16,505 bases of DNA, from the UHGV virus genome UHGV-0075529; one strand, 5' to 3'. The notes beneath the pieces are model-generated. The model did no database searches. It was given only the letters and a program-made list of their open reading frames with translations, and was not told where the DNA came from. This document shows, in pieces, positions 50 to 10,538 of this stretch (positions within the stretch are counted from its first letter, which is position 1; each line of letters begins with the position of its first letter). Both the position numbers and the translations under genes were made by a program. The stretch is from a virus.

Positions 50-448
50 TTACTCAACAGGTAAGGCGCGAGGTTTTCCTTCAGGATCAACCGCGACATA
101 CTTAAATAATGCTTCTGTCGCTTTATACCGTTGCCCGATTGGTTCAGACGCTACTTTTTTCACCCACACTTCAATATTAATGCTGACCGATGTCGTCCCT
201 TTCTGGACACAGCGTGCATAGCAGCACACCACATCGCCGACCGCAACCGGCCGTAAGAAAGTCATTCCTTCAACCCGCACAGTCACTACGCGACCGTGGG
301 CAATTTCTTTTGCCAGAATAGCGCCGCCAATATCCATTTGTGACATTAACCAACCACCAAAGATGTCACCATTGGCATTGGTATCGGCGGGCATGGCTAA
401 AGTACGTAAAACAAGATCGCCCTGAGGGACGTTATGTGTTGTAGACAT
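50..448 (-). CDS. yciA: Acyl-CoA thioester hydrolase YciA (hotdog fold)
   Basis: 132-aa ORF recognised as enterobacterial YciA from the full sequence (MSTTHNVPQGDLVLRTLAMPADTNANGDIFGGW...); chromosomal, not phage. Confidence 0.9.
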   Translation of the reverse strand: MSTTHNVPQGDLVLRTLAMPADTNANGDIFGGWLMSQMDIGGAILAKEIAHGRVVTVRVEGMTFLRPVAVGDVVCCYARCVQKGTTSVSINIEVWVKKVASEPIGQRYKATEALFKYVAVDPEGKPRALPVE

Positions 449-580: not shown

Positions 581-750
581 CTTTAACGAGTTCTGCTTTA
601 TCGTGTTTTATTGCGTTTAAAATTATTCCCGCCCAAACCGCGCCGTTACTCACTTCATTGTTTATAACGCTTTAACGTGTTTTATTTTGTATGGTTGCAA
701 TTTACGTGTTTTGTGTACACTGCTGAGTACATGGCTCAGGGGTGTACACG
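581..750. repeat. Repeat-rich junction upstream of int (candidate attL arm sites and int promoter region)
   Basis: CGTGTTTT at 602, 676 and 705; CTTTAACG at 581 and 671; 8-bp palindrome GTGTACAC at 713-720 and again at 742-749, just before the int start. Confidence 0.3.
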
Positions 751-1932
751 ATGCTCACAGATACAAAACTTCGCAAGGCGCTTGGGAAGCGCAGAGAGAG
801 TGTGGAAGTTCTCTCAGATTCAAACGGGCTTAACGTGAGGTTAAGCATAACTGGTGGCGTAACTTTCTTCTACCGTTATCGCTGGCAGGGTAAGCCGGTG
901 CAGCTCAGCATAGGTGAATACCCAGCCTACTCATTAGCGCAGGCCAGAGACCGCAGGCAGCAGTTTCGCGCCTGGCTGAGTGAGGGTTACGATCCACGCC
1001 AGAAGGTTCTGGTTGAGAAAGCGGAAAGGATAGAGGCGCTGACGGTTGACCAGGCGTATGAGTACTGGGTAAAGCATTACTGCATTCCCGAGGGTCTGAT
1101 AAAAATCGATGCCAATACCAGGAGCTTTCAGAAGCACATTAGCCCGCGCATTGGCAGGGCGATGGTTGATCAGACAGTCAAGGCTAACTGGCTTGATGTG
1201 TTCGACGAGATGGGGCGTTCGGTTATTACTGGTGAGATGCTGTCATTAATGAAGCGCGCGTTCCGGTTCTGCCATAACCGAGGGGTGATTAAAAACAACC
1301 CGCTTGAATCCTTGCGCAGATCAGACGTTGGTATTGCAGCGAAGATGAAGGAGAGGCGACTCTCCGACGAAGAGATCAAAGTGGTTTGGGATACACTTTT
1401 CGCGCTCCCTCCATCACAGCAGCTTGTTATACGGTTCATGCTCCTGACTGGGTGCAGGGCTGCAGAAATAAGGAAATCGCGCTGGGACTGGTACAACTTT
1501 AATGAAAAGACCTGGACGGTACCGGCTGAGGATTACAAAACAGGGAAGACGATCAGGAGGGCATTGCCTGAAGTGGCGATCAGGCTACTTCAGGAGCATA
1601 AAAGAGGTTCGGTCACTAAGCACGTTTTAACACCGGCTCAGTTCCGAGATAAAGAAGACATTCCACCTACTCAGGCTCTGGTATCGACCTATTCCATGCA
1701 GGTGATCAGAAAGACAGACATGAAACAGTGGTCTCTGCATGACCTGAGACGCACCGTGGCTACCAGGCTGTCAGAACTTGGCGCGCCACCGCATGTTATT
1801 GAAAAGCTACTCGGTCATCAGATGGGTGGGGTGATGGCCAGATACAACCTGCACGACTATATGGATGATCAGCGCGAGTGGTTGGGTATCTGGCAGAATC
1901 ACCTGCAGAGCATTATTGGGTATCAGCTTTAG
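751..1932 (+). CDS. int: Tyrosine site-specific integrase (P4-like, N-terminal arm-binding domain)
   Basis: C-terminal catalytic motifs HDLRRT, LLGHQ and tyrosine in VMARYNLHDY; N-terminus MLTDTKLRKA typical of this family. The ORF track starts at GTG 742; first in-frame ATG is 751. Confidence 0.88.
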   Translation: MLTDTKLRKALGKRRESVEVLSDSNGLNVRLSITGGVTFFYRYRWQGKPVQLSIGEYPAYSLAQARDRRQQFRAWLSEGYDPRQKVLVEKAERIEALTVDQAYEYWVKHYCIPEGLIKIDANTRSFQKHISPRIGRAMVDQTVKANWLDVFDEMGRSVITGEMLSLMKRAFRFCHNRGVIKNNPLESLRRSDVGIAAKMKERRLSDEEIKVVWDTLFALPPSQQLVIRFMLLTGCRAAEIRKSRWDWYNFNEKTWTVPAEDYKTGKTIRRALPEVAIRLLQEHKRGSVTKHVLTPAQFRDKEDIPPTQALVSTYSMQVIRKTDMKQWSLHDLRRTVATRLSELGAPPHVIEKLLGHQMGGVMARYNLHDYMDDQREWLGIWQNHLQSIIGYQL

Positions 1933-2128
1933 AGGCGTTGACCTGCATTTCCCACGAAACGATCTCCGACTCTCTCCAGCGTTTTGGGTTGCCGGGGATT
2001 GTTGGTTTGGGGAAAGGGCAGGTGAAGCCAGCAGGCATTCGCTCCGGGGTGCTCCAGAAATACAGAGTGCTCCGGGAAATCTTATAGCGAGCCAGTACGT
2101 CACTGGTAAGCAGGATACTGTCATTCAT
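1913..2128 (-). CDS. AlpA-family DNA-binding protein (excisionase / prophage regulator)
   Basis: 71-aa ORF with the AlpA signature ...ISRSTLYFW...FPKPTIPG..KRWRESEIVSWE; SD GGAGA 6 nt upstream of ATG 2128; 3' end overlaps the int 3' end convergently by 20 nt. Confidence 0.65.
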   Translation of the reverse strand: MNDSILLTSDVLARYKISRSTLYFWSTPERMPAGFTCPFPKPTIPGNPKRWRESEIVSWEMQVNASKADTQ

Positions 2129-2672: not shown

Positions 2673-3000
2673 TGGCTGACTCCTGCAAAATGAGGTAGAC
2701 GATTGCCACAGCGCGAAGCGGGTTCCGGTGAGTGGCGCTGATGCCAGATTCGTGCGATGCCTGCCAGACGGACTTGCCTGACGGAGCGAGCCCGATTCGA
2801 TGCTTCTTCATTGCCGGGTAAAGCTCTTCGGCGCGCCGCAGCGGGAAATAACCAGTGTTCTGTACCGTGTTAAACCAATTCCACGACAAATTGGCGCCGG
2901 AATTCTCGTGTGGATGAATGGTGGCGCTGTACTTTGGCTTTAGGAAATAGGCCAGCCTGACGCTAATCTCCCCATCACTCAGCTTGCTGTAATCCATCAC
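2635..3000 (-). CDS. Hypothetical phage protein, 121 aa
   Basis: ORF whose ATG (3000-2998) overlaps the stop of the upstream gene (ATGA junction). Confidence 0.55.
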   Translation of the reverse strand: MMDYSKLSDGEISVRLAYFLKPKYSATIHPHENSGANLSWNWFNTVQNTGYFPLRRAEELYPAMKKHRIGLAPSGKSVWQASHESGISATHRNPLRAVAIVYLILQESANVQANPARPDIR

Positions 3001-3221
3001 TTTTCATCCTCCAAATCATCCACTGCATCCATCACGTCAGCCCCGCGAATCATCTCGAACGCCCGGCAAGCCATCTCAAAACACAGCCGCTCATGTGGGT
3101 GGGGAGACTTCCAGTATTCGAACCCATCGCGATGCGAATAGCCCTGCATCGCGTAAAACTCCCCGGCAAGCTCTATCGCGGCATCTACCAGTTCGCGGTT
3201 GGTCATCACCTTTCCCATCAC
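2997..3221 (-). CDS. Hypothetical phage protein, 74 aa
   Basis: ORF with ATGA overlap to the TraR-like gene stop. Confidence 0.55.
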   Translation of the reverse strand: MMGKVMTNRELVDAAIELAGEFYAMQGYSHRDGFEYWKSPHPHERLCFEMACRAFEMIRGADVMDAVDDLEDEK

Positions 3222-3436
3222 ATCCCCCTCTGCTTATTCCGAAATTCCATCTCACCCTGGCAATCAACGCACATCGTGCAGCCCGGATACGCTTTCCGGC
3301 GAGCCTCCGGCAGTGGCTCGCAACATTCCTCACAGTGCGTTGCCGATACCGCATCACGGTTAATCCGGTGAGCACTTAACGCAGCATTACGCTGCAACTC
3401 TTCGACGGCTGATGCGTCGTCTGCAAAATCTGCCAT
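3218..3436 (-). CDS. TraR/DksA-family C4 zinc-finger protein
   Basis: 72 aa with CEECCEPLPEARRKAYPGCTMCVDCQ (CxxC-N17-CxxC), the signature of TraR/DksA proteins; SD AGGGAG upstream. Confidence 0.75.
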   Translation of the reverse strand: MADFADDASAVEELQRNAALSAHRINRDAVSATHCEECCEPLPEARRKAYPGCTMCVDCQGEMEFRNKQRGM

Positions 3437-3490
3437 GGTCAGTGCTCCCTGAACTGTTCATTGATGCGGCTGACGGCAAACGCCAGCAAT

Positions 3491-3536
3491 AAAAAAGGCC
3501 GCATTAGCGACCCGGTGATTTGTGCTGTCATGCGGC
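3491..3536 (-). terminator. Possible weak intrinsic terminator or attenuator (minus strand) between the 203-aa gene and the TraR-like gene
   Basis: 7-bp stem GCCGCAT (3498-3504) / ATGCGGC (3530-3536) with a long ~25-nt loop, followed on the minus strand by TTTTTT (plus A-run 3491-3496); the stop of the 203-aa gene sits in the stem. Confidence 0.3.
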
Positions 3537-4139
3537 GCGACCCGCCATTATTTCGGCCTTCTGCTCATCATCAAGGATGTCGTCAGATATAATCGCCACA
3601 CGGTTGCTCGCTGCCCATGAGACAGGCTCACTTTCTCGGATCGCCTTGTTCAGTGCATCAGCGGCATCAAGAACTGCTTGCGGAAGTGAGTAACAATCAC
3701 CGCCATCAGGAATTATTTCTTCGCAATGCTGCTCAACGTCGAAATATGGCGGGTAATTTGGTTCGCAGATCATCAGTTGGAGTTCGCCTGGCAGCACTGA
3801 ATTGTCCAGGCAGTAGTCAGCCAGCGAATCAAGGTCAAAGAAATACTGATCGCCATCGAAGAGAACGAGTGGCTCGCCCGCCCAGACTGCCCGCTCCATC
3901 TCGGAAAACTTTGTCTGGCGACTTTCTCGGTGACATTCTTCGCAGTAACCATGGGGGCTATGGATTGGGTGCTCTTCTGGTTTGTTTTTGCACTTCTGGT
4001 GCGTCGCGCCACACCACCGGGCCATGCGCTCGTCATTGCCCCAGAAGCGCCCGCCACGGTCTACCCACCCGGTCAAAGTCTGGATGCTGGCTGCTTCATC
4101 GCTGTCCATCATTACAATCTTTTCAGTTTTCATGCTCAT
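3528..4139 (-). CDS. Hypothetical phage protein, 203 aa, Cys/His-rich centre and acidic C-terminus
   Basis: Long ORF with ATGA overlap to the upstream gene; motif WCGATHQKCKNKPEEHPIHSPHGYCEECH suggests metal binding; no family recognised. Confidence 0.65.
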   Translation of the reverse strand: MSMKTEKIVMMDSDEAASIQTLTGWVDRGGRFWGNDERMARWCGATHQKCKNKPEEHPIHSPHGYCEECHRESRQTKFSEMERAVWAGEPLVLFDGDQYFFDLDSLADYCLDNSVLPGELQLMICEPNYPPYFDVEQHCEEIIPDGGDCYSLPQAVLDAADALNKAIRESEPVSWAASNRVAIISDDILDDEQKAEIMAGRAA

Positions 4140-4363
4140 GACTCCACTCCGTAGCGCCCATTCAGGCGACCAATTTCGCTGTTAAATTTGATAAGGCTGA
4201 TGCCTAGAGGCTCGACGATTTGGTGATATTTTCGGAGGATAGGCGGGACGACTTTATTCCAGTTCGGCTTGGGCTTTGTGCGCATCGCCGCTTTCAGTTC
4301 GTCACTGCATCGCCGGGCCTGAGAGTGCAAAGCATTCTCCTGTTCGGTGGTCATTCGCTTCAT
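4136..4363 (-). CDS. Hypothetical phage protein, 75 aa
   Basis: ORF with ATGA overlaps at both ends (Dam stop and 203-aa start). Confidence 0.55.
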   Translation of the reverse strand: MKRMTTEQENALHSQARRCSDELKAAMRTKPKPNWNKVVPPILRKYHQIVEPLGISLIKFNSEIGRLNGRYGVES

Positions 4364-4911
4364 GCTGCCTCCCGCCGGGCGATAAGTTTCGCTCCGAAAG
4401 TCATTAATACGTCGCGCTCCACGAAATTGGACTCGCAGTGTGTCCGAGGGAATGGCCGCCAGATGAGCAACATACTCCCTTTATTATTTCCCGATACCGG
4501 CTTACCGGTGACCGGGTTGATGAATTCCAGCCGCCCGGCAGTGATGAATCGAACCTCGCTCGCCGTCTCGATAGCCTCACGGAACCAGCCGACGGAAGTA
4601 TCAGCCGGAACCAGCATGACGGTGCCGATCTGATTCTTGCTCTCCGCTGCGGCTTTCTTCACGAATGGCGTGATGTCGCTGTAAGGTGGGTTGAGCCACG
4701 CATAGCCTGGAATGGTGAGGTAATCGGCCCACGGAGTTTCCAGCGTATTCTGCTCTGCGGTGATGAACTTGCGGCAGAGCGCGTTATGCGGCGCTGCTGC
4801 GGCGTCCAGTTGAAAGCAGAACTCTGCATCCAGCGCGGCAAATAGAGCCGGTGGTGTGCGCCATAAATCACGCTGATCTGCTGGCGTGTTACTTCCGGTG
4901 TAATCGGTCAT
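4360..4911 (-). CDS. dam: Phage-type DNA N6-adenine methyltransferase (Dam family)
   Basis: 183 aa with the catalytic NPPY motif (AWLNPPYSD) and overall phage Dam architecture. Confidence 0.8.
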   Translation of the reverse strand: MTDYTGSNTPADQRDLWRTPPALFAALDAEFCFQLDAAAAPHNALCRKFITAEQNTLETPWADYLTIPGYAWLNPPYSDITPFVKKAAAESKNQIGTVMLVPADTSVGWFREAIETASEVRFITAGRLEFINPVTGKPVSGNNKGSMLLIWRPFPRTHCESNFVERDVLMTFGAKLIARREAA

Positions 4912-5066
4912 GCCGCCTCCCTCTTATTGTTTAGCTCTTCCGCCAAGCGCTGGGCCTTGAGTGGGTTCTGGATGACCATGCCGCCGGGAACCACCCACCC
5001 GCGGCGTAAGTTCGAATAGACGAGCGTCACCGATCCCACGCTGATGTTGTCGTGTGCATTTTTCAT
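4908..5066 (-). CDS. Small hypothetical protein, 52 aa (not in the ORF track)
   Basis: Hand translation of the minus strand gives [52 protein letters not shown]; ATG overlaps the exo stop and its TGA overlaps the dam ATG; SD GGAGAG 8 nt upstream. The listed 84-aa ORF here is in another frame. Confidence 0.45.
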
Positions 5067-5743
5067 CGCCATTGCTCTCCGAAGGTGAAGCCAATCTCTG
5101 CCAGCGCCTCGTCCATCTTTTCGATGAACTCCGGCACCATCTCGTCGAAGTCGGCCATGTATTTTTCATCCCGCTCAACCACGACGTAATGCAGCCCCTC
5201 GCGCTTCATGCGAGGGTCGTAGTTGGCAAAGAACCAGGCTGGATTTTTGTTTACCCACATGCTGTATTGCACCTGGGCCATGTAGTCCGCTTTGATGGCA
5301 TCGAAGCCGCCGAGCCGGAACTTCATGAAGTCTCGGGAGGTGAACGGGCATTTCAGCTCGAGGCCAAATCCGTTACTGCACAGGCCGTCTGGTGAACAGG
5401 CGGTGCGCATGGTTTCATCGCGAAAGAGGATCGGTGATTCGATGACGCTCACTCCGGTCGTGAACTCAAACAGGGTGCGTGCGTCCTCTTCGTACTGCTT
5501 GCCCCAGGCAAGCGCCTTTGCATTCACCTCCGGCGCTACACCGGTGCATACCTCAGCGAGGAGGGTGTGGAAGTAGGACATCTTCATGCAAGTCCATTTG
5601 GTGCCGCTGCGCGGTTTTGAAATGACGTTATGAACCTCAGATGCGGTGATAACACCGAGGCGAAGTCGATGCCACTCCTCATCACCCTGTTCGATTCTGG
5701 TCACATCAATGCCGGTTCGCGCCAGGATGATTTCTGGTGTCAT
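5063..5743 (-). CDS. exo: Lambda-type 5'-3' exonuclease (Red-alpha / YqaJ family)
   Basis: 226 aa, near-collinear with lambda Exo as recalled ([14 protein letters not shown]..., [32 protein letters not shown]-terminal FGEQWR). Confidence 0.9.
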
Positions 5744-6669
5744 GCGGCAGCCCTCTGCTTGAGGAAACCAAGAGCCTTGACGGCCTCTATCTCAGTGAGA
5801 TCGCCAGACTCCAGAATGTCGCGCTTGAAGATACGGCGGCACAGAGGGAGAAGGTCCTCATCCCATGTTTTGTTCATGGCGATCAGGAGGTCGTTTATCT
5901 CTTTCAGCGTGTCGAGGCTGGCCGGGGTAATATCGCGCTCTGGCTGGCGCTCTGCAGCAAAGTTGATACCCTCCTCGCCCTCAGTGTTGACGTGGTCGAT
6001 AGCGGCATCCAGACGTTCGCGTCGCGGCCAGTATTTGGTTGCCTGCTTCACGACTGTCTTGAGGATCATCTGCTCTTCGTCCGTCACCCATGGACACTTC
6101 TTGCTGCTGTCCTGCTTGTACTTCTTCCAGGCTTCCGAACGGTCACGGATCGCGAAGATATCCGCTATGCGCATGGTATGGGTGAGATAGTCGCCGTCGT
6201 CAGTTTTAACCACGACATACGCCCCAACAATCTCACCGCGCTGCTCTGCGGTGTCGAAGTCGTTGTAGATGTGAATGGGTGGCTTATCTAGCCCCTCACG
6301 GCGGAACTGGTCGTTCTTCCGCACGATTGCAGACTGGCACCACTTAATTGCACCAGATTGCTGGGCGATGTGCATCAACCCCATGTAGCTAATATCGAGG
6401 CAGATAGCACCTTTTCGCGGCACAAGATAAGCAAGTTTCTGCGCCGGGTTCAGCGATATCCCGATTCCTGAAATATTCATCAGGGCGCTACGGGTGCTAG
6501 TCGGGTTGGAGAGAGCGATTTTCGCCAGGTAGTCATTGTTGGCGAAGATCTGCATGGCGAACTCAGATTCGCGCTTGAATTGAATGGACGGTTCGGCGCA
6601 AACCTGCTCGAACTCCGCCTTGAGTGGGTTAATCAGGTTGAATACCTGATCTGTAAGCAGGCCAGCCAT
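5740..6669 (-). CDS. recT: RecT-family single-strand annealing protein
   Basis: 309 aa directly upstream of exo with ATGA coupling; sequence pattern consistent with the RecT family; SD AGGAGGA upstream. Confidence 0.75.
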
Positions 6670-6693: not shown

Positions 6694-6978
6694 TTAAAAC
6701 GGGCAGCCGGTGCGGTGTTCCCAGTCGTGCTCTGCCTGGGCGTAGGCCACTGCCGAAACGAAGTCGTTGTATGCCTCGGCAGCTTTATCGCTGCGAAGTC
6801 CTTCGTATGGGCTGGCGTCGATCGGCACGGAGAAGTGGAAGAGACCGGACGGCTCTTTTGGCATCATGTCGATGATTTCCTGCGCCCGGTCGTCGATCCA
6901 CTTCTCTTTCTCGTCGGTGAGCTGCTGCTCAGCCCAGCGTCGATCTTCGATGCGGTCGTAAGTGAGGAATGCGTTCAT
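6694..6978 (-). CDS. gam: Gam-like host-nuclease (RecBCD) inhibitor
   Basis: 94 aa; N-terminus MNAFLTYDRIEDRRWAEQQL resembles lambda GamS [22 protein letters not shown] as recalled; sits just upstream of the annealing protein as in lambda. Confidence 0.55.
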   Translation of the reverse strand: MNAFLTYDRIEDRRWAEQQLTDEKEKWIDDRAQEIIDMMPKEPSGLFHFSVPIDASPYEGLRSDKAAEAYNDFVSAVAYAQAEHDWEHRTGCPF

Positions 6979-8025: not shown

Positions 8026-8166
8026 TTAGGCTGTTTTTCTATGCCACGGATAACCGATGGCGACCTTCATTTCGTCGTAGGCTGCCATCCACATGGCGCC
8101 ATCACCGATAAACAGGGCAATGGCTGCTTTACTCTGCGCTGCGCGCAGCAGGTGATGATTGATCAT
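8026..8166 (-). CDS. kil: Kil-like small peptide, 46 aa (candidate cell-division inhibitor; not in the ORF track)
   Basis: Hand translation: MINHHLLRAAQSKAAIALFIGDGAMWMAAYDEMKVAIGYPWHRKTA; ATG overlaps the stop of the upstream small ORF; the ALFIGDGAMW segment resembles lambda Kil as I recall it (unverified). Confidence 0.4.
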   Translation of the reverse strand: MINHHLLRAAQSKAAIALFIGDGAMWMAAYDEMKVAIGYPWHRKTA

Positions 8167-8930: not shown

Positions 8931-9143
8931 CTACAACTCATCACGAATCTGTGAGAGTGTGCTGATCGCCTGGTAATGACCGCGACGCTGCTCTTCTGTT
9001 TTGAACGCGCGCATATCGTCTTTTATCGATGCGATTGCCTTATTCAGAACTTCCACTTGCGCTTCTTTAATCGCCTGTTTGCGTGGCTTCTGACGCTTCT
9101 TAGGAAGGTCTCTTAAACACGCCGGAATGTATGTCTGAGTCAT
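8931..9143 (-). CDS. Basic 70-aa protein, first gene downstream of pL (N position; antiterminator identity unproven)
   Basis: ORF with SD AAGAGGA; Lys/Arg-rich stretch LPKKRQKPRKQAIKEAQ near the N-terminus; position matches lambda N. Confidence 0.5.
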   Translation of the reverse strand: MTQTYIPACLRDLPKKRQKPRKQAIKEAQVEVLNKAIASIKDDMRAFKTEEQRRGHYQAISTLSQIRDEL

Positions 9144-9348
9144 AAAAAATCCTCTTGTGATTCAGCACAGCCCACTCAGCTTCGAATGGACTGGAATAAA
9201 TCTTTTTTTCGCTTTGCCATAATTGCCGCTCTCCCTGAGCCCGCCTATGGTCCGACGCATGGTTTACTGTCGCGCCGTTCGACTGACCGAATCTCCACTT
9301 CGCCGCTGGCTAACTTCGCTCAGCTGTCGATGTTTCGTTTCGATGGGG

Positions 9349-9430
9349 TAAATTTAGCGTGATGCTAAATTATGCGCAATAGCAAAATGCTAAATTGTTG
9401 AATGGTTTTATTTAGCGTATTGATTAATAA
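9349..9430 (-). promoter_or_regulatory. OL operator triplet with pL promoter
   Basis: 17-bp sites TTTAGC-N5-GCTAAA at 9353-9369 (perfect), 9378-9394 and 9411-9427 (imperfect); on the minus strand -35 TTGCGC (9379-9374), 17-bp spacer, -10 TAAATT (9356-9351). Confidence 0.6.
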
Positions 9431-9466
9431 GCGATTAAAAATTTACAGCGAAGGAATTCGGGACGT

Positions 9467-9490
9467 AAAAAAGCCCGCGCGATGGCGGGC
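9467..9490 (-). terminator. Intrinsic terminator downstream of cI (minus strand)
   Basis: Stem GCCCGC (9473-9478) / GCGGGC (9485-9490), loop GCGATG, followed on the minus strand by TTTTTT (plus A-run 9467-9472). Confidence 0.6.
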
Positions 9491-9510
9491 TTGAGGGGTT
9501 TTGCGTGAGG

Positions 9511-10188
9511 TTATGGGATGTTTAGTATTTTGGCATCAACCACAACGCCGATGATTTTGCAGTTTCCATTAATTTCTAGCATTGGATATGCGGGGTTAAG
9601 GGGCTTTAGGAAGCGTCTGCCGGCATCGATTACAAGCTTCTTAAAGGTCGCTTCGTTATCGCCTTCTAGCTTCGCGACAACCAGCTTTCCGTTGCGCGGC
9701 TCGACTTCAGGATCAACAAGTATCGCTGCTCCCTCGGGTATGCTCAGTCCAGCCGGGGAGGTCATAGAATCCCCTTTAACGTCCAGCCAGAATGAATCTT
9801 CTGAGCAGTCAACAGTCGTGTCATACCAGCGATCTATCGCTCTTCGGTGATAAGGTTCTACAGCTTCCATCCATTGCCCCGCGCTTACCCAGCTGATTAC
9901 AGGATAACTTCCTTTTGTCTCGTTCAGTCCTCGAAATGCAACGTTCGAAGGTTCTTCACTGGCGTGTAAAACATCCATCCAGCCAAAAGGCAGATCAAGC
10001 GCAGTTTCAATTTTGCGAGCCATCTTATCGCCGATATTGCGATGAGGGTTTGGTCCCAGTAGCTGGCTAAGCGCAGCCGGACTTGTCTCGATGAGCTCGG
10101 CAAACTGCGCTTTGGTCATTCCAGACTCGTGCTGACGCTTCTCGTACAGCGCTTCCAGGTTGGCTTTTCTGATTTCTTTATTTTCCAT
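9511..10188 (-). CDS. cI: cI-type prophage repressor (N-terminal HTH, C-terminal S24 LexA-like autopeptidase)
   Basis: Start taken at ATG 10188 (MENKEIRKANLEA...); C-terminal domain has the catalytic Ser in GDSM, a downstream Lys, and an Ala-Gly candidate cleavage site (SWVSAGQW). The ORF track runs to 10305 across the operators. Confidence 0.88.
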   Translation of the reverse strand: MENKEIRKANLEALYEKRQHESGMTKAQFAELIETSPAALSQLLGPNPHRNIGDKMARKIETALDLPFGWMDVLHASEEPSNVAFRGLNETKGSYPVISWVSAGQWMEAVEPYHRRAIDRWYDTTVDCSEDSFWLDVKGDSMTSPAGLSIPEGAAILVDPEVEPRNGKLVVAKLEGDNEATFKKLVIDAGRRFLKPLNPAYPMLEINGNCKIIGVVVDAKILNIP

Positions 10189-10304
10189 ACCTGCATTGTT
10201 ACTGCTTTTAGCAAAATGATAAATATGCAAATTGCTAAATGATGCTTGCGTAGTATTTAGCATAACGCTAAACTCCAAATCAAACGACTCACCCGGAGAC
10301 ACCA
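10189..10304. promoter_or_regulatory. OR operator triplet with divergent PRM/PR promoters
   Basis: 17-bp sites at 10207-10223 (TTTAGC-AAAAT-GATAAA), 10223-10239 (weak) and 10256-10272 (perfect TTTAGC-ATAAC-GCTAAA); PR candidate -35 TTGCGT (10246-10251), 17-bp spacer, -10 TAAACT (10269-10274). Confidence 0.7.
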
Positions 10305-10538
10305 ATGAGCACTGAACTACACCGCTGGCGCAAGGCCGCCACTACCGACGAATGGGCGCAGCTCGCAAAGTTGGCTAACACGACGCCAGGTTACCTGGAC
10401 CAGATCGCCTACGGAAATCGCCGGGCATCTCCAGAAATGGCATCTGCTATCGAGAAAGGCACGAAGAATTTTCACCGCCAGGCTCCGGTCCTAAAAGAAA
10501 GCCTGGTATTCGCATCGCCGCGTGATACTGCGGCCTAA
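10305..10538 (+). CDS. cro: Cro-like / YdaS-family HTH DNA-binding protein
   Basis: 77-aa ORF divergent from cI across the operator region; SD GGAGA 7 nt upstream; HTH-like segment EWAQLAKLANTTPGYLDQIAYGNR. Confidence 0.65.
   Translation: MSTELHRWRKAATTDEWAQLAKLANTTPGYLDQIAYGNRRASPEMASAIEKGTKNFHRQAPVLKESLVFASPRDTAA

Follow-up and report, generated by a model that had tools for sequence, protein, structure and literature searches.

A 72-residue protein encoded on the minus strand of a lambdoid prophage very probably binds the host RNA polymerase (RNAP) and regulates transcription initiation in the manner of F-plasmid TraR and lambda Orf73; we base this reading on homology, motif conservation, the predicted fold, and the position of the gene in its operon. 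The gene, a homologue of lambda orf73, occupies positions 3218..3436 of the 16,505-nucleotide window (the whole stretch of DNA that was analysed), and its product is MADFADDASAVEELQRNAALSAHRINRDAVSATHCEECCEPLPEARRKAYPGCTMCVDCQGEMEFRNKQRGM. It comprises 72 codons from ATG to TGA, and a Shine-Dalgarno sequence, AGGGAG (3445..3450, minus strand), can be read 8 nt 5' of the ATG. On sequence grounds it is clearly a genuine gene and a member of the TraR subfamily of phage and plasmid type; a chance ORF is ruled out because Pfam, PHROG, and TIGR02419 all match it, as does TraR in the PDB.

These four profile and sequence searches agree with the first-pass annotation, which had placed a 72-aa zinc finger protein of the TraR/DksA family at 3218-3436. 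Pfam PF01258 (zf-dskA_traR) scored 35.2 bits against a gathering score of 24.9 (E = 1.2e-8), with the match confined to the zinc-finger residues 34-64, and PHROG 54 ("DksA-like zinc-finger protein") matched over the full length (E = 1.1e-23). NCBIfam TIGR02419, [quoted passage not shown], gave 66.5 bits (cutoff, 59.7), with residues 3-64 covering the whole profile (1-64 of 64). A phmmer search of the PDB returned F-plasmid TraR as the best match (5w1s_M; E = 2.8e-12; residues 1-68). In a regular-expression scan of all six frames, the TraR-like protein was the sole occurrence of the motif CxxC-x15-19-CxxC in the window. Judged by the scores of the equivalog models, the protein is neither an orthologue of F-plasmid TraR nor DksA: it reached 53 bits with the F-plasmid TraR model NF010268 (cutoff, 108) and 16.2 bits with the DksA models NF008045 / TIGR02420 (cutoff, 289), where residues 33-69 alone matched.

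The residues that define the family were compared with those of TraR and of lambda Orf73, whose sequence was taken from an unannotated gap of NC_001416. Loss of the acidic tip in this alignment had been named beforehand as the outcome that would count against the proposed function; the DxxDxA tip is intact. Codons 3-8, D-F-A-D-D-A (3413..3430, minus strand), align as D3-F-A-D6-D-A8 with D3-E-A-D6-E-A8 of TraR and D3-I-I-D6-S-A8 of Orf73. The C4 zinc motif, C35xxC38-x17-C56xxC59 (3260..3334, minus strand), was found by the regular-expression scan and by Pfam, and its four cysteines are the predicted zinc ligands. The original description of a C4 protein is right about the pattern but not about the cysteine total, which is six, C39 and C53 being extra. 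By alignment, codons 44-48, E-A-R-R-K (3293..3307, minus strand), hold the equivalents of TraR E46, R48, R49, and K50, and the segment E44-A-R46-R47-K48 is identical to TraR E46-A-R48-R49-K50. In TraR, R48 touches the β' rim helices, and E46, R49, and K50 make up the β'Si3 interface for full activation (PMC9239242, PMC6970531). E64 is the acidic residue of the C-terminal helix, a residue listed as a TraR-family hallmark (PMC8614690), and it is invariant in both alignments made with the 72-aa protein.

Conservation was counted in an alignment of 123 sequences, consisting of the query, 120 database homologues, TraR, and Orf73. R46 and E64 are present in all 123, D6 and A8 each in 121, and the zinc cysteines C35, C38, C56, and C59 each in 121-123; position 3 is D in 97 sequences and E in 23. 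The extra cysteine C53 is kept in 122 of the 123 sequences, and C39 in 15. The pattern points to clear purifying selection on the TraR-like protein across more than 100 homologues. The family assignment, the architecture, and every functional hallmark residue hold.

The family mechanism is known from TraR, which occupies the RNAP secondary channel with its N-terminal tip near the active-site Mg2+, rotates the β lobe-Si1, repositions β'Si3, and kinks the bridge helix; without ppGpp, it inhibits promoters having unstable open complexes and activates others (PMC6970531). Secondary-channel binding and ppGpp-independent inhibition of rrnB P1 have been shown for TraR and for each of the five phage homologues examined (mBio 2022, PMC9239242), and all of these proteins complement a dksA-null strain (PMC9239242). 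The general claim that members of this family bind in the secondary channel and reprogram promoters is upheld by these studies (PMC9239242, PMC6970531). Lambda Orf73 has the same IC50 as TraR, about 50 nM, and is crippled by D3N or D6N; it lowers the growth rate of the host and increases burst size 3-4 fold upon induction (PMC9239242). Phage P2 Orf82, Vibrio phage VP882 Orf61, VHML Orf8, and Xenorhabdus Gp34 likewise bind RNAP and inhibit rrnB P1 (PMC9239242). By their description these four are more distant, and several have an imperfect DxxDxA or N-terminal extensions and weaker activity, whereas the motif in the 72-aa protein is complete.

By analogy with these proteins, we infer the RNAP binding, promoter effects, expression timing, and benefit to the phage of the 72-aa protein. 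It would bind E. coli RNAP and make no contact with DNA; its N-terminal helix (residues ~5-29) would enter the secondary channel, placing D3, D6, and A8 near the active site. The zinc globule (C35, C38, C56, C59), together with R46 and R47, would lie on the β' rim helices, E44, R47, and K48 would contact β'Si3, and the C-terminal helix (57-69) would contact the β lobe-Si1. Like TraR, the protein should act alone, without ppGpp. With lambda Orf73 as the guide, inhibition of rRNA and ribosomal-protein promoters can be reliably expected: open complexes at these promoters would be destabilised, so that host growth slows and resources pass to phage production.

An AlphaFold2 model of the 72-aa protein, computed with 37 homologues, is of moderate confidence (mean pLDDT, 74; about 55 in the N-terminal tip and in the block 21-30). 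It consists of a helix (5-29), a zinc globule with a short helix (44-49), and a second long helix (57-69). The TraR elements defined by cryo-EM are N (2-27), G (28-57), and C (58-73) (PMC6970531), and the layout of the model fits them once a two-residue deletion is allowed for. A Foldseek search of the PDB with the model put RNAP-bound TraR first (6n57_M; probability, 1.00; TM, 0.51) and 5w1s_M second, with DksA-RNAP complexes ranking after the TraR chains. Superposition on RNAP-bound TraR gave an rmsd of 6-7 Å and a TM of 0.5; the high rmsd arises because the angles between the helices differ. Free lambda Orf73 models superpose on bound TraR similarly poorly (PMC8614690).

A zinc finger of TraR/DksA fold might instead do without any control of initiation, either as a YbiI-like protein or as one that binds RNAP with no effect on it. 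The confinement of the Pfam match to the zinc finger would fit such a protein, as would the rank of YbiI as second-best PDB match (E = 9e-8), the 47 bits scored with the YbiI-type model NF008243, and the extra cysteines, which could change the globule. Yet the YbiI and NF008243 matches leave out the N-terminal tip and the latter falls below its cutoff of 96 bits, whereas the matches to TIGR02419 and TraR run the full length and include DxxDxA; moreover, five of five phage homologues tested were active, some with imperfect motifs (PMC9239242). We consider this alternative unlikely. E. coli YbiI (PDB 2KGO) is alike in its zinc-finger core, which is ~47% identical over 34-40 residues, but it has 88 aa (108 residues in the 2KGO chain), its N-terminal part is different, and nothing in it aligns with the DxxDxA tip. 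E. coli DksA (151 aa) has a homologous zinc-finger region and analogous tip aspartates; the 72-aa protein is half its size and lacks the long coiled coil, and the sequence match between them is marginal (E = 0.096). DksA shares the RNAP site and the promoter class of TraR-type proteins, which work without ppGpp (PMC9239242).

Among characterised members, the proposed TraR-like control of initiation can be compared most closely with that exerted by lambda Orf73. Orf73 (unannotated in NC_001416; complement 30392-30613) has 73 aa and is 51% identical to the 72-aa protein in the same register. The two share the DxxDxA tip, the C4 zinc site, a total of six cysteines with one extra cysteine at the TraR-55 position, and the acidic residue of the C-terminal helix; both genes lie in the exo-xis part of the pL operon, downstream of a small ORF and a terminator-like element. 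They differ in the Si3-contact motif, which is ExxRK here, as in TraR, and ExxRL in Orf73, and in the first extra cysteine, which is at the TraR-41 equivalent here and at TraR-38 in Orf73. The neighbours are also different: upstream are Dam, a 75-aa gene, and a 203-aa gene, and downstream are a PHROG 4132 gene, a NinX-like gene, and a DUF4222 gene, in place of ea22 and ea8.5 in lambda. F TraR (PDB 5W1S, 6N57), the best structural match of the modelled protein, shows full-length homology, the same DxxDxA spacing, an identical PEARRK segment, and the same three-element architecture. At 39% identity, it differs by a two-residue deletion in the N-terminal helix and two additional cysteines in the 72-aa protein, whose gene lies in a prophage early operon rather than in a tra operon.

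Lambda Orf73 hardly activates thrABC, argI, or rpoH P3 (PMC9239242), and its surplus cysteines have been suggested to disturb the globular domain, possibly causing this failure to activate (PMC9239242). Since the ExxRK contact with Si3 is intact, the 72-aa protein may, like F TraR, activate amino-acid biosynthesis promoters as well. A natural variant that combines a lambda-type context and extra cysteines with a full Si3 contact could be used to probe why Orf73 inhibits without activating. Two cautions on the transfer of roles between these proteins belong here: identity to characterised members is just 39-51%, and the extra cysteines C39 and C53 count against a straightforward transfer.

Published phenotypes of lambda orf73 conflict, being pro-lysogenic with reduced yield in some studies and of increased yield in another (PMC8614690, PMC9239242). 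As a second alternative, the protein could bind RNAP as TraR does but have been selected for steering the choice between lysis and lysogeny, or for the "bin" block of host replication initiation, and not for a higher lytic yield through shutdown of ribosome synthesis. Work from the Wegrzyn laboratory classed orf73 of lambda and of Stx phages as pro-lysogenic (PMC8614690), and older work implicated orf73, ea22, ea8.5, and orf55 in the block of host replication initiation (cited in PMC9239242). Set against this, lambda with the orf73 D3A/D6A substitutions or an in-frame deletion gave a 3-4 fold lower yield after induction, without polarity, and dnaA mRNA was barely changed by lambda Orf73 (PMC9239242). 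We find this alternative quite unlikely, and it differs from TraR-like control of initiation for lytic yield in physiological outcome but not in molecular mechanism.

The window is a lambdoid prophage inserted beside yciA. The integrase gene, recognised by its integrase domains, spans 742-1932, and the excisionase gene xis spans 1913-2128 (minus strand, in the leftward operon; PHROG). A CI-like repressor with a LexA-type S24 peptidase domain (9511..10305, minus strand; PHROG 4, E = 1.5e-50), followed by a terminator found by scan (9471-9492), and a CII-like gene are situated to the right of the leftward operon. The operon, on the minus strand, begins with a 70-aa gene to which no function was assigned (8931-9143) and continues with kil (8026-8166), a gam-like gene (6694-6978), recT (5740-6669), the YqaJ exonuclease gene exo (5063-5743), a DUF1317 gene homologous to orf60a (4908-5072), dam (4360-4911), the 75-aa gene, the 203-aa gene (3528..4139; PHROG 18739 / 11053, without an assigned function), and the TraR gene. 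After these come the 74-aa gene directly 3' of the TraR gene (2997..3221, minus strand; PHROG 4132, likewise without an assigned function), the NinX-like gene, the DUF4222 gene, a 61-aa gene, and xis. The TraR stop and the start of the 74-aa gene share bases (GTGATG), an arrangement that points to translational coupling. The placement of the TraR gene between exo/DUF1317 and xis is the position of lambda orf73.

From this layout, we infer a leftward early promoter region immediately 3' of the repressor gene, at about 9150-9470, which would put the TraR gene ~5.9 kb into the leftward operon. Inactivation of the CI-like repressor would release leftward early transcription through kil, gam, recT, exo, dam, and the small genes into the TraR gene. 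Within the window, no N-like antiterminator was recognised. A sigma-70-like site at 3547-3574, upstream of the TraR gene, was considered as a promoter and rejected: it is a single 9/12 match in non-conserved sequence, and shuffled sequences gave 5.8 such sites per region.

The host is taken to be E. coli because the YciA encoded beside the prophage matches that of E. coli exactly and the 72-aa protein is recorded in draft E. coli assemblies. E. coli RNAP has the βSi1 and β'Si3 insertions used by TraR (PMC9239242), and the host assigned here therefore carries the RNAP features that go with this family. A megablast search of 2900-3800 against complete E. coli genomes found 3 genomes with a 42-bp match, and one of 3000-3700 against phage records found HK639 alone, over 98 bp. 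A host other than E. coli, considered in view of these sparse matches, was overturned by the presence of the protein together with its neighbours in draft E. coli assemblies.

Between the TraR gene and the 203-aa gene lies a conserved 30-codon ORF (3439..3531, minus strand; product, MTAQITGSLMRPFLLLAFAVSRINEQFREH), identified from the ORF list and by its conservation upstream of TraR homologues. It opens with an ATG that overlaps the stop codon of the preceding gene (ATGA) and stops 2 nt 5' of the TraR ATG, and its last codons double as the TraR Shine-Dalgarno sequence, which is kept as (C/A)GGGAG in related elements. The same ORF precedes TraR homologues in lambda, where the counterpart is MKSKIIRELQAPFLLFAFTLKRINQQFRD at about 30620-30709, and in many prophages. 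The 98 bp at 3439-3536 are 94% identical to an intergenic stretch of HK639, which there stands 5' of an unrelated gene, and are alignable with the region upstream of lambda orf73. For a sample unbiased with respect to the downstream part, 203 in-register elements were gathered via the hairpin described below alone. The ORF is open with an ATG in 197 of the 203, and 4 more have only GTG or TTG; its length is 29-31 codons in all hairpin-anchored elements except one. Along a minimum-spanning tree, pN/pS was 0.30 in the frame of the small ORF, compared with 0.85 and 1.46 in the other frames. A variant with an in-frame deletion of three codons exists, and in HK639 the T-run of the hairpin is destroyed and the ORF is still open. 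By these sequence measures, the 30-codon ORF appears to be genuine, conserved, and translated.

Codons 7-15 of this ORF contain a hairpin with a T-run that resembles an intrinsic terminator (3491..3513, minus strand; terminator scan and folding), 55 nt upstream of the TraR gene. The compact stem, GGGTCGC-TAAT-GCGGCCT at 3496-3513, has 7 bp and about -11.8 kcal/mol, and the T-run occupies 3491-3497. The TraR gene had been described as the first gene after a hairpin at 3491-3536; the compact stem and the T-run bear this out in part, but the stretch is enclosed by the 30-codon ORF, and the wide pairing is not conserved in related phages. That wide hairpin (3498-3536; 7 bp with a 25-nt loop) was rejected, since its 5' arm belongs to the upstream gene's variable end and is non-complementary in relatives. 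A stem of at least 5 bp stands directly before the T-run in 139 of 143 related elements, built from at least three unrelated stem sequences (GGTCGC/GCGGCC, GGGAGC/GCTCCC, and AAGCCTC/GAGGCTT), and the amino acids at codons 8 and 11 of the small ORF co-vary as S...R or E...A. Because the stem is kept with unrelated sequences, the hairpin itself, besides the small ORF, appears to be under selection. The whole 109-nt intergenic stretch folds no better than shuffled sequences (z = -1.07). Rfam searches found no family at gathering threshold across the window and at most chance-level matches in 3350-3650 (Trp_leader, 16.8 bits, E = 0.65). The stem AGGTCGC...GCGGCC was also considered, and rejected, as a signature of this element alone: of 312 hairpin-anchored hits, 109 had no in-register downstream element; in most of these the stem serves as a terminator at other places in phage genomes, and a few are indel variants of the element.

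In lambda, the counterpart of this hairpin was predicted earlier as the terminator t2, with lower mRNA downstream (PMC4195576). With such a hairpin 55 nt upstream, expression of the TraR gene may rely either on antitermination or on ribosomes translating the small ORF. A gene silenced outright by termination at this point, with the ORF a conserved passenger, is very improbable: such silencing would agree with the hairpin and its U6 at 3491-3513, with the levels of lambda orf73, ea22, and ea8.5 mRNA below those of genes upstream of the equivalent hairpin (PMC4195576), and with the lack of a recognisable N homologue in the window, but lambda, which has the same hairpin, translates Orf73 at a high level within 20 min of induction (PMC9239242), the TraR-like protein is under purifying selection over more than 100 homologues, xis, whose expression is needed for excision, lies further downstream in the same operon, and the hairpin sits inside an ORF that looks translated, translation of this kind normally suppressing termination.

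An expressed TraR gene gated by a translation-sensitive terminator is an attractive reading of the element. Such a hitherto uncharacterised device, which would operate in lambda as well, may consist of a 29-32-codon ORF translationally coupled to the upstream gene, with the terminator within codons 7-15 and the TraR ribosome-binding site in the last codons. Ribosomes on the small ORF would melt the hairpin and allow RNAP to read on to the TraR gene; a poorly translated ORF would lead to termination before it. A mimic of ppGpp/DksA would in this way be produced only when the host translation apparatus is active. The combined proposal, that a leader-like device gates lambdoid TraR-type genes and, separately, that the ExxRK variant of TraR might also activate promoters, is tentative, and we hold it to be rather doubtful as a whole. 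A TraR-like gene directly follows 161 of about 217 evaluable elements.

The TraR-like gene is an ordinary one that public databases already annotate: NCBI lists the identical protein under the name [quoted passage not shown], and a detailed study of 2022 dealt with its closest characterised relative. Taken by itself, it adds little beyond annotation, being one more member with textbook motifs in a family whose mechanism was solved by cryo-EM of TraR-RNAP. Only two things are distinctive here, a TraR-like ExxRK motif in a protein with Orf73-like cysteines and the upstream element of small ORF and terminator; the element is common to lambda and not specific to the window. It is the more useful by-product, mostly unannotated and common to lambda and Shiga-toxin phages, and it could explain differences in orf73/ea22 mRNA levels in lambda and Phi24B. 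The element is found in 186 phage records, among them those of lambda and of the Stx phages 933W and Sakai. Two records annotate the small ORF, as "hypothetical protein" or "putative secreted protein", and its 30-aa peptide matched no Pfam or PHROG family.

At least 24 contigs encode the identical 72-aa protein in a syntenic setting, and relatives with 45-72% identity occur in prophages of Enterobacter, Kluyvera, Lelliottia, Citrobacter, Leclercia, and others. A homologue is encoded in 378 phage records. TraR-like proteins that appeared to cluster under the downstream 74-aa protein were regarded as a look-up artefact, the sequences themselves being TraR homologues.

The gap upstream of the TraR gene, nominally intergenic, is filled by a conserved small ORF of 30 codons (3439-3531, minus strand), encoding MTAQITGSLMRPFLLLAFAVSRINEQFREH. 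Its start overlaps the stop of the upstream gene in an ATGA, and only 2 nt separate its own stop from the ATG of TraR. Counterparts are found in lambda (at about 30620-30709), in Stx phages and in many prophages, where the ORF mostly goes without annotation; its product gave no family match in Pfam or PHROG. The ratio of nonsynonymous to synonymous polymorphism (pN/pS) was 0.30 in frame, compared with 0.85 and 1.46 in the two other frames.

Within codons 7 to 15 of the small ORF lies a terminator-like hairpin followed by a T-run (3491-3513, minus strand), the lambda equivalent of which has been predicted to be the terminator t2 (Bloch et al. 2014, PMC4195576). Among related elements the hairpin is maintained by at least three unrelated stem sequences, through compensatory changes, and the codon in its loop is hypervariable. 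In this element, coding constraint and RNA-structure constraint appear to overlap. A single sigma-70-like match, TTGATG-16-AATAAT (9 of 12 positions), is found at 3547-3574 on the minus strand, in the last part of the 203-aa gene and just upstream of the small ORF; the count is below the chance expectation for the region, the sequence is not conserved, and the site is probably meaningless.

In about a quarter of cases the element stands in front of a gene other than TraR, and it therefore behaves as a separate mosaic module. In the record of phage HK639 (L003), the element (2501-2598) is 94% identical to that of the window (3439-3536), but the gene that follows it is an unrelated one of 64 aa rather than TraR. 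The HK639 element has also lost its T-run, with PFL replaced by PLH, and the small ORF is nonetheless open. A methyltransferase lies directly upstream of the element in HK639. The window has a Dam-type N6-adenine methyltransferase gene (4360-4911, minus strand; PF05869, E=5e-57) inside the exo-xis region, at a distance of two genes from the small ORF on its upstream side.

On the downstream side, the stop of TraR and the start of the gene that follows overlap (ATGTGATG; 3218-3221, minus strand); the latter gene encodes a 74-aa protein of PHROG 4132. The two genes are paired in the same way in Salmonella phage ABTNLsp11242 and in every exact-match contig. The TraR-like protein itself carries two cysteines, C39 and C53 (codons 3320-3322 and 3278-3280, minus strand), beyond the four zinc cysteines. 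C53, which occupies the position of V55 in TraR, is conserved (122 of 123 homologues), and lambda Orf73 has it too; C39 is rare (15/123). Several 72-aa proteins named TraR/DksA share their first 30 residues with the window protein but differ from it in the C-terminal third (...CVSCQEEWEILIRQGRG); they were listed, by an oddity of the look-up, in the cluster of the downstream 74-aa protein. Judged by sequence, these proteins are TraR homologues, and since they pair the same N-terminal residues with a different C-terminal third, mosaic variants of TraR exist.

At the start of the leftward operon, the region between the terminator of the CI-like repressor (9471-9492) and the first leftward gene (9150-9470, minus strand) contains repeated ACGCTAAAT and TTTAGCAT motifs, which resemble operators, and then a leader of about 200 nt; a search of this region against Rfam gave no nut or put RNA family. 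The product of the first gene (8931-9143, minus strand), 70 aa long and belonging to PHROG 5305, contains the basic stretch PKKRQKPRKQ. The gene lies where an N-like antiterminator would be expected, but no family evidence was obtained for such an identity.

The prophage, whose integrase gene is at 742-1932 (plus strand), is integrated beside yciA (50-448, minus strand). The exo-xis segment of the window was absent from all complete E. coli genomes in the collection compared; only draft assemblies and metagenomes contained it, despite a YciA product identical to that of E. coli.
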